Positions 36,091-48,552 of a DNA stretch of 50,710 bases are shown here, in pieces. A program made the translations under genes and the position numbers. The stretch comes from a virus (lineage: Duplodnaviria; Heunggongvirae; Uroviricota; Caudoviricetes; Ackermannviridae): IMG/VR virus record IMGVR_UViG_2974616520_000001, positions 113,328 through 164,037 of that record. The stretch is one strand, 5' to 3'. The stretch's first letter is position 1. Each line of letters opens with the position of its first letter. The notes beneath the pieces were generated by a model. The model had not been told where the DNA came from. It saw only the letters and a program-made list of their open reading frames with translations, and did not search any database.

Positions 36091-37467
36091 ATGTCCGACT
36101 TCACAAATAAAGTAATACAGAAACTTGATGATAACATTGAGTGGTTGAACAAACAAACCCGCATGGGGGCGGAAGGGGGCTACCCAGTTCAACCTTTGGC
36201 AACGCCTGACCAGCTGCGTCTTCTAAACCAGACTGTACAACGTCTGAACGGCTTACCGCAGAAGACCATCTTCCCTCTCCAGACTCTCGACCGCACCAAG
36301 ATGAAGTGGGACGACTACCTGTACACCTTTACGCCGTGTGAGCTGGTAGAGAACCCGGCCACCCAGCAGAAGACCTGGTTCAAGCGTGAGGACTACTTCG
36401 CCCCGCTCTCCAACTACGAGAACGGCCAGCAGGGTATCAACGGCTCCAAACTCCGTCAGGCCATCTGGCTCCTACAGCAGCATATCCTGGCAGGCGGCTC
36501 CCCTGATATCGTTCATGGTACTGTCATGGGTTCGCCTCAGTCACCGATGGCAACGGCTGTCTCGCGCCACTTCGGCGGCAAGACCACTACAGTCCTGGGT
36601 GCTACCAAGCCGTCAACCTGTATGAAGGCTGGTATGGTTGAGATGAGTGCCTGGTTCGGTAGCGAATTCAACTTCGTCGGCTCTGGCTACAATACTGTCA
36701 TTCAGCCACGCTGTAAGCTGCTCCTGGAAGGCACGAAGCCGGATGCGTATTACCTGGAGTACGGTATCACCCTGGATCACACAAAGCATGCCTCAGCGCG
36801 TCTGGCAGCGTTCCATGCCCTGGGTGGATACCAGGTACAGAACATCCCAGATCATATCACCGATCTGATTATCCCGGCTGGCTCATGTAACAGCTGTACC
36901 AGTATCTTTACTGGCCTGGCCATGTATCCAAAGCCTAACATCAAGAATATCTGGCTTGTTGGTATTGGGCCGAACCGCCTCCGCTTCATTGAGGAGCGCC
37001 TGGACATCATTGGTAAGGAGCTGGGGCTTCCTCACATCCGTGCGTGGACTCGTGATTACCGCGACAATCCAGGCTTTGGGAAGGACGCACCTGCACCGAA
37101 GGCCAAGAACCTGCTAGACATCATGAAAGCGGGCCGCCAGACTGGTAAAACAGAGATGGCCCAGGCTGTTATCGATTCGGCTAAACCGCGCTTCACTGTC
37201 CACCATTGGGACCTGCATTCCACCAACTGGGTGCGCTACAATGATCTCATGGATTATCAGTGGGGTGATATTGAGCTGCATCCACGCTATGAAGGGAAGG
37301 TGATGCGCTTTGTACAGGAACGTGCGCCTGAGCTTCTGAATGAGAATACCCTGTTCTGGATCGTGGGCAGCAAGCCATACATCGAGCCGATGAAGAAGAA
37401 CTGCCCTGAGCTGGGTGATATCCCAACGGAAGTCGAGGTTAACGCTTTCAACCCGGTTAAAAAGTAA
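36091..37467 (+). CDS. PLP-dependent enzyme of the thymidine hypermodification pathway (ViI gp226-like)
   Basis: FKREDYFAPL...INGSKLRQ (PLP lysine), SPQSPMA and IIPAGSCNS fit the fold-type II PLP family seen with hmU-modifying genes. Likely start MSDF at 36091 with CAGGAG SD. Confidence 0.8.
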   Translation: MSDFTNKVIQKLDDNIEWLNKQTRMGAEGGYPVQPLATPDQLRLLNQTVQRLNGLPQKTIFPLQTLDRTKMKWDDYLYTFTPCELVENPATQQKTWFKREDYFAPLSNYENGQQGINGSKLRQAIWLLQQHILAGGSPDIVHGTVMGSPQSPMATAVSRHFGGKTTTVLGATKPSTCMKAGMVEMSAWFGSEFNFVGSGYNTVIQPRCKLLLEGTKPDAYYLEYGITLDHTKHASARLAAFHALGGYQVQNIPDHITDLIIPAGSCNSCTSIFTGLAMYPKPNIKNIWLVGIGPNRLRFIEERLDIIGKELGLPHIRAWTRDYRDNPGFGKDAPAPKAKNLLDIMKAGRQTGKTEMAQAVIDSAKPRFTVHHWDLHSTNWVRYNDLMDYQWGDIELHPRYEGKVMRFVQERAPELLNENTLFWIVGSKPYIEPMKKNCPELGDIPTEVEVNAFNPVKK

Positions 37468-40795: not shown

Positions 40796-43700
40796 ATGTC
40801 AGTTTTCTACACGAACGTATCCCGTGATGGCGGCGATTTATTGGTTCGAATCGCAGACCACGAGGGGAATCGTAGACTCACCCGCGTTAAGAAATTCACC
40901 CCAACTCTCTATTTACCAACCCACGATTATGCGAATGCTGAAAAAGTCGGCCTGCTGGGTGAACCCCTGGTGCCCAAGACCTTTGACAGCATGCGCATGG
41001 CCGAGAACTATATTGAGGAATACAAGGACGTCCATGGCGCGGCCATCTTTGGCCAGACCAACTGGGCCTTCCAGTTCATTGCTCATAAGTTCGGTGGGAC
41101 AATTACCCCCGACTTCACTAATATCCATATCGCCAACGTCGATATAGAGGTGTTCTCAGGTGGGTGGGATCCTGACTCTAAGCAGCTTCTCAAAGGCCCG
41201 TTCCCTGAGCCGGTAGTCAGCCAGGAAGGTAAGATTGGGCGCAACCCAACCAGCCTGAAGCGCTACATTAAGAAGGCCAAGGCCAGTCAGGAATTCGTCC
41301 GTCACCACTTCCCCAACTCTTATATTGACCCGGCGCTAGAAGCCCTGGACGTTGATGACCTAGATGACAGTAGCCAGATAGACGCTGAGTCCCTGAACGC
41401 AGCCTTCCCTATCCCGCTGATCCAGCTACAGGATATGGCCAACAACAAGTATCACATCTTCGGTATGCCGGCTCTGAAGGATCGTATGAAGTTCAAATAT
41501 GATCCCAACGATAAAGAGATCGGCGGCCTTGAGGTGGTCTACCACGAGTTTGAGACCGAGCAAGACCTGCTGCGGGCCTTCCTTGATCACTGGCAAGAAC
41601 GTCAGTATGACGGCTGGACCGGCTGGAACATCGAACAGTTTGACTGCCCGTACCTGGTTGAACGTATCAACAACGTCTTGGGTGAGGGTGCCTACAGCCG
41701 CCTGAGTCCCTGGAACATCGTCAAGAAGCGTTACATCAAAGATGCCAAGGGTGACATCAAGACCTATGAGTTCGTGGGCTGTGAAATGCTGGACATGCAG
41801 CAGATCTATAAGAAGCACACCTACACCACCCGCGAACGTTACTCCCTTGATTGGATCGCATACTGTGAGCTGGAAGAGAAGAAGATGGACTACAGTGAAT
41901 CGAAGTCACTGAACACCCTCTTCTTCAACGATTATGCCAAGTACTGCCGATATGGTATCAAGGATACCAAGCTGGTCTGGCGTCTGGAAGAGAAGCTGAA
42001 GCTGTTGCAGCTGATGTTCGTGTTAGCCTACACCACCAAGTCAAACTACCGCGACGGCCTGGGTACAGTAGCCCCCTGGCTGGCCATGTGTTACTACAAG
42101 CTGTTTGAGAAAGGGATCGTCCCTAAGATCAGGCGTGTCTACAACGGGCCGACTGACTTTGAGGGTGCCTTCGTCATGGAGGTTACGGCAGGGCGCTACA
42201 GATGGGTGTTCAGCCTTGACCTTAACTCCCTGTATCCTCACATCATCCAGCAGTACAACCTTGGGCCTGAGACTATCATTGATGATCCGCATGTACGCCG
42301 CGAACTCATTGAGGCTATGGTCAAAGAACTGGAAGCCAGCATTGGCCTCAGTACGCCTATGCACCTGCGCACCCGCTACAAAGCCCTGGCTGATAAACTG
42401 CGCCGCGCTGTCGATGAGCGCCTGCATGTTGTTGAAGAGCTGGTTGCCTGTGGTAAGTTTGAGTTCAAATGTCTGAAGGAAGCCAATGTGTCCTTCACAC
42501 CGAACGTTCAGTTCTTCCGCAATGACAAGATGTCGTTCCTGTCTGAAATCATGCGTTGGGTCTATGGCTCACGTAAGGTTGAGAAGGCTACTGGTCTGCG
42601 CTATGAGCAGTATGACAACTGGTGTACTGAACTGGCGGCTGGTAAGTTCTCTGTAGAGGCTGCTCGCAAGTCTAGATTCTGGGATGAAGAATGGTATCAG
42701 ACCACACTGAAGATTGCCGAGCCGTTGCTCAAAGACGCTGCCACCGAGTGGGAGAAGAAGGCGATTGTCCAGGACGTACTACAGCAGGGTCTGAAGATCT
42801 TGATGAACGCTGGTTATGGTGCTATCTCTAACGTCTGGTTCAAGGAATACTTCGACCTGCGTATTGCTGAGGCGATCACCACATCTGGTCAGCTGATCAA
42901 CAAGTGGAACAAGAAGCACACCGACGCCTTCCTGAACAAAGAGTTTGGTACAGGCGGCCTTGACTACGTTATTGCAGGTGACACCGACTCCAACTACATT
43001 ACGCTGGAGCGCCTGGTTGAACGTGAGTGGCCGGGTGAGACCGATATGCACAAGATCGCCGACAATATCGATGAGTGGATTCGTAAGACCTACTCCCCGT
43101 TGGTGAACCAGTGGTGTGAGGATCTCTGTGGCACTGTGAACGGCTTTGAGCAGCGTATGGTGTGGGAACGTGAGGTTATCGCCCCCGAAGCCATCTGGCG
43201 TGCTAAGAAGATGTATTGCATGGCAGTCATTGACTCAGAGGGTGTGCGCTACGATACGCCTAAGATCAAGTTCAAAGGTCTTGAGGCCCGTAAATCGTCC
43301 ACCCCTGAGTGGTGCCGTAACAAACTCAAGGACTGCTACAAGACCATCCTTCTGGGTACTGAAGAGCAGGTACAGAAGCAGATCAGTGAAATCAAGGCAG
43401 AGTACATGAAACTCAGCGTTGAAGACATTGCCAAGGCCTCATCAGTCTCTGACCTTGAGAAGTGGATGGATGGTGACAGCTACCGCAAGGGAACCCACTA
43501 TGCGGCCAAGGCGTCTATCAACTACAACCGCCTGATTGCAGCCAAGCCTGACCTGGAGATGACAGAGATTGAATCGGGCGATAAGGTGCTGATAGTCAAC
43601 CTCAAGCCTAATAACCCGATAGGCGAGAACAACCTGGCATTCCCGGACTATCTGGAACCTGAACTGGATATGCATAAGTGGGTTGACTACAACGTCTCCT

Positions 43701-43813
43701 TCACCAAAGGCTTCATTGATCCGATTCAGTCTATCCTTGAAGTGGTGGGCTGGAACTGGAAGCGCCGCGTCAATCTGATGGCGATGCTGAAGAAGCAACA
43801 GGATAAAGGTTAA
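40796..43813 (+). CDS. gp43: DNA polymerase, family B (T4 gp43-like)
   Basis: ExoI DIEV, GWNIEQFDCPYL, motif A DLNSLYPHII, motif B KILMNAGYGA, motif C AGDTDS, KKMY and KFKGLE. Confidence 0.97.
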   Translation: MSVFYTNVSRDGGDLLVRIADHEGNRRLTRVKKFTPTLYLPTHDYANAEKVGLLGEPLVPKTFDSMRMAENYIEEYKDVHGAAIFGQTNWAFQFIAHKFGGTITPDFTNIHIANVDIEVFSGGWDPDSKQLLKGPFPEPVVSQEGKIGRNPTSLKRYIKKAKASQEFVRHHFPNSYIDPALEALDVDDLDDSSQIDAESLNAAFPIPLIQLQDMANNKYHIFGMPALKDRMKFKYDPNDKEIGGLEVVYHEFETEQDLLRAFLDHWQERQYDGWTGWNIEQFDCPYLVERINNVLGEGAYSRLSPWNIVKKRYIKDAKGDIKTYEFVGCEMLDMQQIYKKHTYTTRERYSLDWIAYCELEEKKMDYSESKSLNTLFFNDYAKYCRYGIKDTKLVWRLEEKLKLLQLMFVLAYTTKSNYRDGLGTVAPWLAMCYYKLFEKGIVPKIRRVYNGPTDFEGAFVMEVTAGRYRWVFSLDLNSLYPHIIQQYNLGPETIIDDPHVRRELIEAMVKELEASIGLSTPMHLRTRYKALADKLRRAVDERLHVVEELVACGKFEFKCLKEANVSFTPNVQFFRNDKMSFLSEIMRWVYGSRKVEKATGLRYEQYDNWCTELAAGKFSVEAARKSRFWDEEWYQTTLKIAEPLLKDAATEWEKKAIVQDVLQQGLKILMNAGYGAISNVWFKEYFDLRIAEAITTSGQLINKWNKKHTDAFLNKEFGTGGLDYVIAGDTDSNYITLERLVEREWPGETDMHKIADNIDEWIRKTYSPLVNQWCEDLCGTVNGFEQRMVWEREVIAPEAIWRAKKMYCMAVIDSEGVRYDTPKIKFKGLEARKSSTPEWCRNKLKDCYKTILLGTEEQVQKQISEIKAEYMKLSVEDIAKASSVSDLEKWMDGDSYRKGTHYAAKASINYNRLIAAKPDLEMTEIESGDKVLIVNLKPNNPIGENNLAFPDYLEPELDMHKWVDYNVSFTKGFIDPIQSILEVVGWNWKRRVNLMAMLKKQQDKG

Positions 43814-45332: not shown

Positions 45333-45679
45333 GCACACATACATTACCAGCTGAGGTCGCAGTTGAGTACCTCAACAAGCTGTTTGCAATTTGCCCAGAG
45401 GCTATGGAGCATCTGGCCCGCGCCCGCGTTATTGTTGACGACCCAGAAGAAGTAGAAAAGCTTCTGGCTGAACCGGGCCGAATGGTTGTCCTGAAAAATG
45501 ATGAGTACAACGAGTTGGCGTTTGGTGTTGTTGGCTTACTGAACGGCTTAGTTACCGAAGGCCGTGTGGCCGCAGTGTTTGAAGGTGAAGAGCCGCAATC
45601 TGCGCGTGTTCGCTCTACTTTCATGGGTTTCAGAGCAGTTACTGACAGCCATTATTCTGAACAGGTAGGTTCAAAATGA
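45329..45679 (+). CDS. Hypothetical protein
   Basis: 116 aa with ATGA overlaps on both sides. Confidence 0.75.
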   Translation: MSTHTLPAEVAVEYLNKLFAICPEAMEHLARARVIVDDPEEVEKLLAEPGRMVVLKNDEYNELAFGVVGLLNGLVTEGRVAAVFEGEEPQSARVRSTFMGFRAVTDSHYSEQVGSK

Positions 45680-46569
45680 GAAACATGATTGTCATTAAGG
45701 GGCCGTCAGGCTGCGGTAAGGGCACTCGCGTTGCTCAGTTCATCGAGTTCCTGCGTACCAAAATGGAACCGCGTGAAGTCAGTTATGAGCACGGCAGTAA
45801 GACCAAGCTGCTGGGTCTGGCATTTGACGAGCTGAAGCTGCTGTTCATCGGCCAGTACACGGTCTCTAACAAATCAGGTCTGGCCAGCTGGACTTCCATG
45901 GACACCATCCATGGCTCGTTAGGCGGCGTCACAGCGCGTGAGTTCCTGAAGGATGAAGTCGATAACGGCTTTACACTGGTCTGTGAAGGCGAGCCGCTGA
46001 TGCTGTCTGATAAGTGGCGTCCGGCCTACATGTTCGACTATTACAAGTTGGACTGCGTGAGTATGCTGTACTTCCATTACCCGGACCGTGCTGAGTATGA
46101 TGCACGCATCATCGGGCGCTCTGGTAAAGCAGCAGGCGATAGTGCCTGGGGCCGTAACTCAGAGTATCCAAAGGAGTTTGAGAAGACTCTGAATGAGATG
46201 CGTAACATCATCACAATGGCTGGTGTTGAGCAGATGAATGAATCTGAAACTGGCAAGACACACATGATGTGTGATACTCCTAATGCCTGGTCTGAATTCA
46301 CGCTGATGCCGCATGATGCCGCCCTGGCTTGTGTAGGCCGTGCCATTATGTTCCAGTTACGCCAAAAAGGTGCGTCTCAACCGTTTATCAAAAATACGAA
46401 AGAGTTCGAGCAGTTCTGTATCGACCATCCGATGCTCCGCTCTGTAGACGGTCCGAACCCGCTTGAGCACCGCGTACCAGTCAAAGCTGCCAAGGCCACG
46501 CCGGTTAAGGAAGAGCCTGTTCCTGTGCGTACCAATAGCATCCTCCGCCACTTTGGGGCATCGAAATGA
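45676..46569 (+). CDS. P-loop kinase linked to thymidine hypermodification (putative hmdU/DNA kinase)
   Basis: IVIKGPSGCGKGT Walker A, LVCEGEPL Walker B-like, YDARIIGRSG lid; in an operon with the aGPT-PPlase2 gene. Confidence 0.75.
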   Translation: MRNMIVIKGPSGCGKGTRVAQFIEFLRTKMEPREVSYEHGSKTKLLGLAFDELKLLFIGQYTVSNKSGLASWTSMDTIHGSLGGVTAREFLKDEVDNGFTLVCEGEPLMLSDKWRPAYMFDYYKLDCVSMLYFHYPDRAEYDARIIGRSGKAAGDSAWGRNSEYPKEFEKTLNEMRNIITMAGVEQMNESETGKTHMMCDTPNAWSEFTLMPHDAALACVGRAIMFQLRQKGASQPFIKNTKEFEQFCIDHPMLRSVDGPNPLEHRVPVKAAKATPVKEEPVPVRTNSILRHFGASK

Positions 46570-47103: not shown

Positions 47104-47318
47104 TTCAAGAATTCATTAAGGGGTTCTGGATTTATGCGCTGCTCCTGGTCTTCTATACCCTGGTGTTCTCAAATATCTTCGTGATGCGTTGGGTATCCAA
47201 GATAACTGTGAGCGAATTCCAGTATGACATAGCAATGAGGGGTGTCAGCTTCTTGATCTCTCTGTTGTTGACCGTCGGCTTCTGTAAATGGATACAATAT
47301 TATGATCTACACTCCTGA
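47100..47318 (+). CDS. Small 2-TM membrane protein
   Basis: Within track ORF 47046..47318; ATG at 47100 (ATGA overlap, GAGG SD); two hydrophobic helices. Confidence 0.7.
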   Translation: MIQEFIKGFWIYALLLVFYTLVFSNIFVMRWVSKITVSEFQYDIAMRGVSFLISLLLTVGFCKWIQYYDLHS

Positions 47319-48552
47319 GAACCTCCGTCTGTCAAAGCTGCCGGGGGCGCTGGGCTATCAACCGCCTGAGAGCTGGAAGTATCCGATTGACCTGACCGTC
47401 GATTATCGTCTTCCCGAGCACCGGCCTTACCTGCTCAAGGCGTGGCTGGAAGCACTCTCCTATACCGAAGAGCACAATCAGCAGCTGCGTCTGATGGACT
47501 ACGCTATTGAGAAGCATCACGGCGCTGACGTTGAGATGAAGATCTGGTTAGCCTTCCTGTGGGGCTGCTGCTATAATGCCATCGGGCCGTGGACCATCCT
47601 GTCTGAATTCCCATACCCGCCTCAGTCTGAAGGTGAGATGCAGCGCTTCAAAGACTGGTATAACCTGAACTTTGACCGCATGCGCTTTGACACAGACTGC
47701 CGGTATCGCAAGTCCAAGATGATCGCCTGTGTCCAGTCCTATGTTGACTGGGTGGGTGACATCGATACGCGCTCGCAGTTTGAAGCCTTTGAGCCGATGT
47801 TGGAACAGACTGGTGAAGACCGTCAGGCCAAGCAGTTCCAGTTGCTGTGGGATACCTCCATGAGCTGGAAGTACTTCGGCCGTCTGAGCTGCTGGAACTT
47901 CCTGGAGGCTCTGAACCTGGTCTTCGGTAACAAGTACAAGATTGACGTCCCCGGCTTCATGCTGCGTGACCGCGAAGGCAGTGAGTCCAACCGTAATGGC
48001 GCAGCCTTCATGAGCAATCGTGACGACTGGGTGACCAAGCACGGCAAGAAAAAGATCAACGGTTGCCCTATCACCGATGAAGAGTGTGACATCCTGGAGT
48101 CTGACCTTGAGGAAGCCTTCCTTGAGTGTAAGATGGAGTTCGGCCACATCACCTTCATCAACCGTCTGAACTTTGAAACCTCTGGTGCCTGCTGGCTCAA
48201 GAAGTTCTTCCGTGAGAAGTCTACCCGCTACATCGGCTGGGATGCCGAGCGTACCTGGGAAGAGATCGACTACATGGAGCGAGAGTGGCCGGAGTACTCC
48301 TGTGCGCCCCTCTGGGAAGCGCGGGCCGCCTGGTTGCCTGATTACCTCCTCTGTGAGAAGGATCCCTCAGGGGAGCGCGGAGTCCGTAAATGGAAGATGC
48401 CTGTGTTCTTCCGTACCGGCGCTCCATTACACATCTGGCATCTGCAACAGGGTACGCGTTGGATCAATGAGGGTGAAGCTGCCAAGACCCTGGATAAAGC
48501 GTTGGCTCCCGCACCGAAATCGAACAACCTCCTCAGCCTCTTCGGTCGGTAG
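47302..48552 (+). CDS. Amino acid:DNA transferase (aGPT-PPlase2 family) for thymidine hypermodification
   Basis: WLAFLWGCCYN, RMRFDTDCRYRK, WKYFGRLSCWNFLEAL, ETSGACWLKKFFR..RYIGWD resemble the HhH-fold aGPT-PPlase2 protein of ViI-like phages (gp247-type). Confidence 0.8.
   Translation: MIYTPENLRLSKLPGALGYQPPESWKYPIDLTVDYRLPEHRPYLLKAWLEALSYTEEHNQQLRLMDYAIEKHHGADVEMKIWLAFLWGCCYNAIGPWTILSEFPYPPQSEGEMQRFKDWYNLNFDRMRFDTDCRYRKSKMIACVQSYVDWVGDIDTRSQFEAFEPMLEQTGEDRQAKQFQLLWDTSMSWKYFGRLSCWNFLEALNLVFGNKYKIDVPGFMLRDREGSESNRNGAAFMSNRDDWVTKHGKKKINGCPITDEECDILESDLEEAFLECKMEFGHITFINRLNFETSGACWLKKFFREKSTRYIGWDAERTWEEIDYMEREWPEYSCAPLWEARAAWLPDYLLCEKDPSGERGVRKWKMPVFFRTGAPLHIWHLQQGTRWINEGEAAKTLDKALAPAPKSNNLLSLFGR

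Follow-up and report, generated by a model that had tools for sequence, protein, structure and literature searches.

Phages that hypermodify thymidine face a timing problem, in that the modification enzymes must find nascent phage DNA before restriction and packaging. PMC5889632 summarises early work in which the timing of hypermodification was given as "coincident with or immediately after" replication, with no mechanism proposed. The question raised by the locus analysed here is whether short hydrophobic peptides on its modification enzymes, which an earlier note read as clamp-docking motifs shared with the DNA polymerase, tie these enzymes to the phage sliding clamp gp45.

Motif-bearing enzymes in a ViI-family phage genome

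The window, the whole stretch of DNA analysed (50,710 nucleotides), is the final 50.7 kb of a 164-kb phage genome. Its proteins are 98–99% identical to those of Erwinia phage phiEa2809 (Ackermannviridae, Nezavisimistyvirus), and by this measure the source phage is a phiEa2809-like member of the Ackermannviridae, in the ViI family. Functions of the ViI orthologues gp226, gp243, and gp247 in the 5-NeOmdU pathway are as given in PMC8989533. Positions below are those of the window unless marked as genome positions.

36091..37467, + strand: PLP-dependent O-serinyl-thymidine decarboxylase, ViI gp226 orthologue, 458 aa (67% identity; fold-type II PLP fold)
37099..37125, + strand: putative gp45-docking motif in the hypervariable insertion loop of the PLP enzyme (core NLLDIM at 37108-37125, residues 340-345)
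40796..43813, + strand: family B DNA polymerase, gp43 (Pfam PF00136/PF03104, PHROG 262)
43760..43789, + strand: polymerase C-terminal clamp-binding peptide, by homology to the RB69 gp43 tail (core NLMAML)
45676..46569, + strand: 5-hmdU DNA kinase 2, ViI gp243 orthologue (PF18747; 52% identity)
46528..46554, + strand: kinase C-terminal motif, deviant form SILRHF, followed by GASK
47302..48552, + strand: serine:DNA transferase (aGPT-PPlase2/ADDT), ViI gp247 orthologue (PF18724; 72% identity)
48517..48543, + strand: transferase C-terminal motif on a disordered tail, conserved in homologues (core NLLSLF)
genome 93164-94399 (L006:3167-4399), - strand: gp160-like aGPT-PPlase1 (PF18723), outside the window
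genome 97396-98061: gp45 sliding clamp, outside the window (PHROG 223, E 5e-58; PDB 1B77 match)

The AlphaFold2 model of the PLP enzyme is of fold-type II, with D-cysteine desulfhydrase as best match (D-cysteine desulfhydrase/ACC deaminase-like), and the context of its catalytic lysine is identical to that of ViI gp226. The clamp is homologous to RB69/T4 gp45 (E 4e-12), its gene is adjoined by those of the clamp loader (gp44 and gp62), and beyond the window the genome also encodes gp33, gp55, and a gp67-type kinase. The gp160-like enzyme is 74–75% identical to the ViI copy; its gene is 83% identical to that of phiEa2809 (KP037007), as against 99% for the polymerase, clamp, and PLP enzyme, which suggests a recent exchange of this gene.

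The interval 37087-37125 (+) encodes exactly APAPKAKNLLDIM, residues 333-345 of the 458-aa PLP enzyme, as had been noted earlier for both sequence and position. In the model of this enzyme, pLDDT exceeds 90 in the core and falls to 61–70 over residues 331–360, and the loop segment ranges from 13 to 62 residues among 120 PLP homologues. Within this loop, the core (NLLDIM here) is kept in all 18 close orthologues while its flanks vary: residue 340 is N or S throughout the 18 closest homologues, residues 341 and 345 are hydrophobic in 18/18 and residue 344 in 15/18, and a lysine often precedes the core. The A, P, A, and P positions of the preceding APAPK run, by comparison, are kept in just one or two of the 18. 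Because positions 340, 341, 344, and 345 are kept and the A-P-A-P run is lost, the conserved unit, as judged from these alignments, is [NS]-Φ-x-x-Φ-Φ within a drifting linker, and the Pro/Ala run that the earlier note had counted as shared is lineage-specific. The APAPK run was thus rejected as the motif itself, and also as a recent DNA copy between genes, given several synonymous differences.

The C-terminus of the polymerase was aligned without gaps to RB69 gp43 by phmmer, with VNLMAM opposite ASLFDM. RB69 gp45 has been crystallised with the C-terminal 11-mer of RB69 gp43 (PMC2988020; PDB 1B8H), and the alignment therefore bears out the proposal that the polymerase motif sits at the known clamp-peptide position. 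The sequence earlier described as the end of the polymerase is present, although it starts at 43751 rather than 43770 and is followed by seven further residues (KKQQDKG). All motif forms recovered in this work fit one register, (Φ/T)-x-x-Φ-Φ, which is also the core of the RB69/T4 gp43 tail. The forms found here are neutral or basic, as is the cognate polymerase tail, and do not match the acidic LDFLF consensus of T4; since the RB69 sequence (SLFDMF) differs from that of T4 too, LDFLF is best regarded as a T4-specific spelling and not as a family-wide requirement.

The motif sits in an internal loop of the PLP decarboxylase and on the C-terminal tails of the kinase, the transferase, and the gp160-like enzyme, so that all three carriers proposed earlier were recovered and a fourth, outside the window, had been missed. 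The kinase peptide is present as described (coordinates refined to 46528-46554, with GASK after it); SILRHF has a histidine at one Φ position, whereas kinase orthologues conform, and one of two motif forms occurs in the last 16 residues of 73 of the 74 kinase homologues. The transferase tail at 48505-48549 agrees exactly in sequence and position. Of the 47 closest transferases, 32 have the motif within their final 16 residues and most of the others have visible variant endings such as xxLW; the motif was absent from the tails of the 13 most distant transferases. The background for these kinase and transferase forms is 0.7% of random 16-mers, for patterns that were written after the data had been seen. 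The gp160-like enzyme ends in SLTSLF followed by GGLKK, and related peptides are present at the C-termini of its orthologues, that of ViI among them. It carries the motif in every lineage checked, which suggests from sequence that it acts on DNA beside the other pathway enzymes. The ViI pathway enzymes themselves carry the motif; the gp67-type kinase does not. Flexible placement was judged from pLDDT for the PLP loop and for the transferase tail (45–58 over residues 391–416, against 85–98 in the body), and from sequence for the kinase and gp160-like tails.

Within the genome, four of the 214 ORFs have the strict pattern in their final 16 residues (0.65 expected), namely the polymerase, the transferase, the gp160-like enzyme, and gp54, a false positive; the kinase variant SILRHF fails this pattern. 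When the 214 tails were ranked by BLOSUM similarity to that of the polymerase, the transferase came 6th, the kinase 33rd, and the gp160-like enzyme 47th. This ranking within one genome is weak; it is conservation and co-variation that provide the signal. The tail tube initiator gp54 (L003:7508-8512, +) has a conserved C-terminal helix that matches the enteric pattern, and the enteric form is therefore a generic amphipathic pattern that is not specific by itself. As a clamp client gp54 was rejected, being a structural protein with a helix-like context and no switch of form in Vibrio.

The motif also serves as a search handle for clamp clients, and it flags a protein beside the DNA ligase gene. 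Directly upstream of the ligase lies a gene (genome 30053-30271; L002:11056-11271, - strand) whose 72-aa product has four cysteines, resembles a zinc ribbon, and belongs to no known family. All clades checked have the motif of their lineage at its C-terminus: the phiEa2809-like phage has GILQLF, the enteric phages VNLLSLM, Cygsa01 NSLLDFF, Vibrio TKRLW, and phiA8-29 GVLRFF. The ligase of the phiEa2809-like phage lacks the motif by strict pattern scan, and for this reason the small protein is a candidate clamp-ligase adaptor or clamp client.

Co-variation of the peptides with clamp-client tails

Conservation of the motifs in orthologues, the check proposed with the original observation, was confirmed across lineages, and the enzyme motifs were found to co-vary with the tails of orthologues of the T4 clamp clients gp43, gp33, and gp55, a more demanding check whose outcome is the firmest evidence obtained. 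Six divergent lineages use four different peptide forms, and polymerase and enzymes agree in 5/6 of them. In an automatic best-6-mer comparison over six genomes, 3 of 720 permutations of polymerase against enzyme tails equalled or exceeded the observed score, or 2 of 720 with the PLP loop included; as the genomes are few and related, these values are supportive and do not amount to rigorous p-values. The likeness of tails within a genome extends to non-homologous proteins, and common ancestry does not account for it there.

Vibrio phage 207E48.1 illustrates the pattern. The form [TSA][KRN][KR]L[WF] occurs in 7 of its 203 ORFs, and the carriers are the polymerase (SKRLW), gp33 (TRKLF), the kinase, both aGPT enzymes, the PLP loop (T-[KR]-[KR]-L-[WF] in these four enzymes), and one small ORF before the ligase. 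The polymerase (L010:10675-13704, -) retains the older VNLFAL, followed by a lysine-rich linker and SKRLW at its end, and these tandem motifs may record a change of motif in progress. Tandem polymerase motifs with a lysine-rich linker are also seen in Vibrio phage YC (L012). A kinase with the motif is present in this phage; a genome-wide search found no gp160-like gene, and none of the genes near the polymerase is a transferase. The phage may have a truncated or different modification pathway.

Other lineages have their own spellings. In Pseudomonas phage Cygsa01 the polymerase has SVMDFF and the enzymes NVFDLF, DLMGFF, SVLDLF, and SLTSFF. A 141-kb metagenomic phage (L050) combines TSALW on the polymerase with NDLW, SSLW, NALW, and NSLW on two kinases and two aGPT enzymes; its kinases are tandem HMUD2 paralogues (L050:8531-9988), both with the local form. 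PhiW-14 has LGAFF on the polymerase, LGGFA on gp33, LGGFF on the kinase gp37, and LGSFF on the transferase gp109. Table 3 of PMC5889632 groups PhiW-14 gp37 with the gp67-type kinase, and BLASTP gave no link between gp37 and the gp67-type kinase of the genome studied here. No relatives of the Vibrio-type or L050-type transferases were found in viral contigs, and the search for related loci with gp45 yielded one locus.

The correspondence is not strictly lock-step. Aeromonas phage phiA8-29 has one form, V-L-[KR]-F-[FI], on the polymerase, gp55, and the zinc-ribbon protein, and another, T-x-[KR]-L-[WF], on gp33 (TARLF) and four enzymes (TKKLW, TKRLW), so that its enzymes match gp33 and not the polymerase. 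The enteric phages likewise have SKKLI on gp33 versus NLLSMM on the polymerase. Two forms in one genome would fit either one degenerate pocket or two sites, and weaken any claim of lock-step change.

Further phages served as controls. No gp45 was found in phage M6, which has a sister pathway, and no such tail is present on its enzymes gp51, gp52, gp54, and gp55. Further homologues without the loop or tail lie in small RecT/DnaB-type or lambdoid-type phage loci, where the absence of gp45, other than in M6, was judged from local context. In T4-like phages (L046, L083, L084), a cluster of TET/JBP, PLP enzyme, transferase, and P-loop kinase genes lies just upstream of gp45, with SLEDFF-type tails on the TET enzyme and transferase and similar peptides in the PLP loop. 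An amino acid:DNA transferase in a phage-like contig (L049:11082-12233) ends in VQSLF, which resembles a beta-clamp motif; this contig has a gene for a Pol III beta-type clamp, no gp45 was found in it, and the tail may be a parallel solution.

Proposed clamp docking and competing explanations

We consider it likely, from the conservation of the peptides and their co-variation with clamp-client tails, that they are gp45-docking motifs which tie these enzymes to clamps on newly made 5-hmdU DNA, at the fork or behind it. The shared docking motif proposed at the outset is thereby supported. The words "to the replisome" are too strong, because gp45 left behind the fork would serve equally well; T4 late transcription uses gp45 left on DNA in this way (PMC9690074). 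Each enzyme would dock by placing two or three hydrophobic side chains in the gp45 pocket that receives the peptide. Once docked on clamps of freshly made 5-hmdU DNA, the enzymes would be locally concentrated and more processive, and the three steps of phosphorylation, serine transfer, and decarboxylation could be carried out shortly after the DNA is synthesised, ahead of packaging or restriction. The clamp would make the pathway more efficient without being required for catalysis: 5-NeOmdU is reconstituted in lysates by five ViI genes with no gp45 among them (PMC5889632), so that a tether would add efficiency and would not enable the chemistry.

We propose more tentatively, and with some doubt, that the kinase, the transferase, its paralogue, and the decarboxylase share the three sites of one clamp trimer as a tool-belt that channels the phosphorylated intermediate. 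If so, the gain of a clamp peptide would be a general and repeatedly evolved way for phages of the T4 superfamily to couple anti-restriction chemistry to replication, and modification would compete with the polymerase and with late transcription for clamp sites.

The motif might instead dock on another shared partner (clamp loader, SSB, or a scaffold) or on a second site of gp45 such as the subunit interface, in which case the peptides would build a modification complex that is not simply clamp-borne. The enzymes of phiA8-29 are far more like one another than like their polymerase, concordance among enzymes (3–5/720) is as strong as that between enzymes and polymerase, and at least two attachment sites are available on T4 gp45 (PMC2988020). 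Against this stand the facts that gp45 is the sole established partner common to gp43, gp33, and gp55 (PMC2988020), that gp33 of phiA8-29 carries the form of the enzymes, and that in Vibrio the polymerase has gained the form of the enzymes after its older one; we regard this explanation as unlikely.

It is very unlikely that the peptides are amphipathic helices for folding or oligomerisation, or C-terminal degrons, that merely resemble clamp motifs. The same pattern is indeed conserved in the virion protein gp54, and AlphaFold draws short helices at PLP residues 341–350 and transferase residues 410–414, but these are of low confidence (pLDDT 45–70) and gp54 keeps its form in Vibrio. If the peptides served folding, there would be no reason for four unrelated folds to change together with the polymerase; the enzymes of clamp-less M6 work without tails, and an internal loop would make a poor terminal degron. 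Binding to the host beta clamp (QL[SD]LF-type), whose consensus we take NLLSLF to resemble and which the distant VQSLF transferase in a contig encoding a beta-type clamp might favour, is highly improbable, since there is no conserved Gln (every Ackermannviridae form has N, S, T, or K at position 1), the spelling of the motif tracks the phage polymerase and not the highly conserved host clamp, and the phages encode their own gp45, gp44, and gp62.

Docking on gp45, the reading we prefer, is directly testable, as purified ViI enzymes and assays for them already exist and the enzymes could be detached from the clamp by a few point mutations that leave catalysis intact. Addition of gp45 and its loader might also raise yields in enzymatic DNA labelling.

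Relation to known clamp-bound enzymes

The closest models are the gp43, gp55, and gp33 epitopes of T4/RB69, which are likewise short hydrophobic peptides on a variable linker, and which in T4 are interchangeable (PMC2988020); orthologues of gp33 and gp55 have matching forms in several of the lineages studied here. The putative docking peptides described here differ in being on base-modifying enzymes and in being basic instead of acidic, with NLLSLF, TKRLW, NALW, and LGGFF in place of LDFLF. T4 ligase uses a GLDFLF peptide in an internal loop to bind gp45 with a Kd of 10.7 uM (PMC6212786; PDB 6DRT), and the placement of its motif midway along a flexible insertion of the catalytic domain is like that in the PLP enzyme; it is a different enzyme with a different sequence, and the strict pattern scan finds no such motif in the phage's own ligase.

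Among modification enzymes, T4 alpha-glucosyltransferase was reported in 2004 to interact with gp45 (Sommer 2004, cited in PMC13216743). The enzyme co-purifies with gp45 and the interaction is confirmed in vitro in the 2026 journal version (PMC13216743), which supersedes the claim of no binding in the 2025 preprint; according to that paper, expression and activity, and not clamp affinity, set the modification ratio. This too is a post-replicative hypermodification enzyme that associates with the phage clamp, but it is a single cytosine-glucosylating enzyme for which the available text names no motif, whereas four thymidine-pathway enzymes are implicated here. The ViI 5-NeOmdU pathway (gp243, gp247, gp226, and gp160) consists of direct orthologues that carry the motif too. 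The available portions of the ViI literature (PMC5889632, PMC8989533) do not describe these tails as functional, and the words "clamp" and "replisome" do not occur in PMC8989533. A search that covered few subscription journals found no paper on thymidine hypermodification enzymes and the clamp. The earlier suggestion that the link had not been described thus holds for the thymidine pathway as far as this search extends, and does not hold for the general idea, which has its precedent in T4 alpha-glucosyltransferase.

The eukaryotic methyltransferase DNMT1 is recruited by PCNA through a PIP box. It shares with the present case a DNA-modifying enzyme held on a sliding clamp by a short Φ-x-x-Φ-Φ peptide, although it concerns maintenance methylation and a canonical Q-containing PIP box and is an analogy only. 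The concept is therefore anticipated by T4 alpha-glucosyltransferase, T4 ligase, and DNMT1-PCNA, which limits the surprise: a clamp motif in an internal loop and the binding of alpha-glucosyltransferase to gp45 were known, and what appears to be new here is the putative clamp motif on thymidine hypermodification enzymes.
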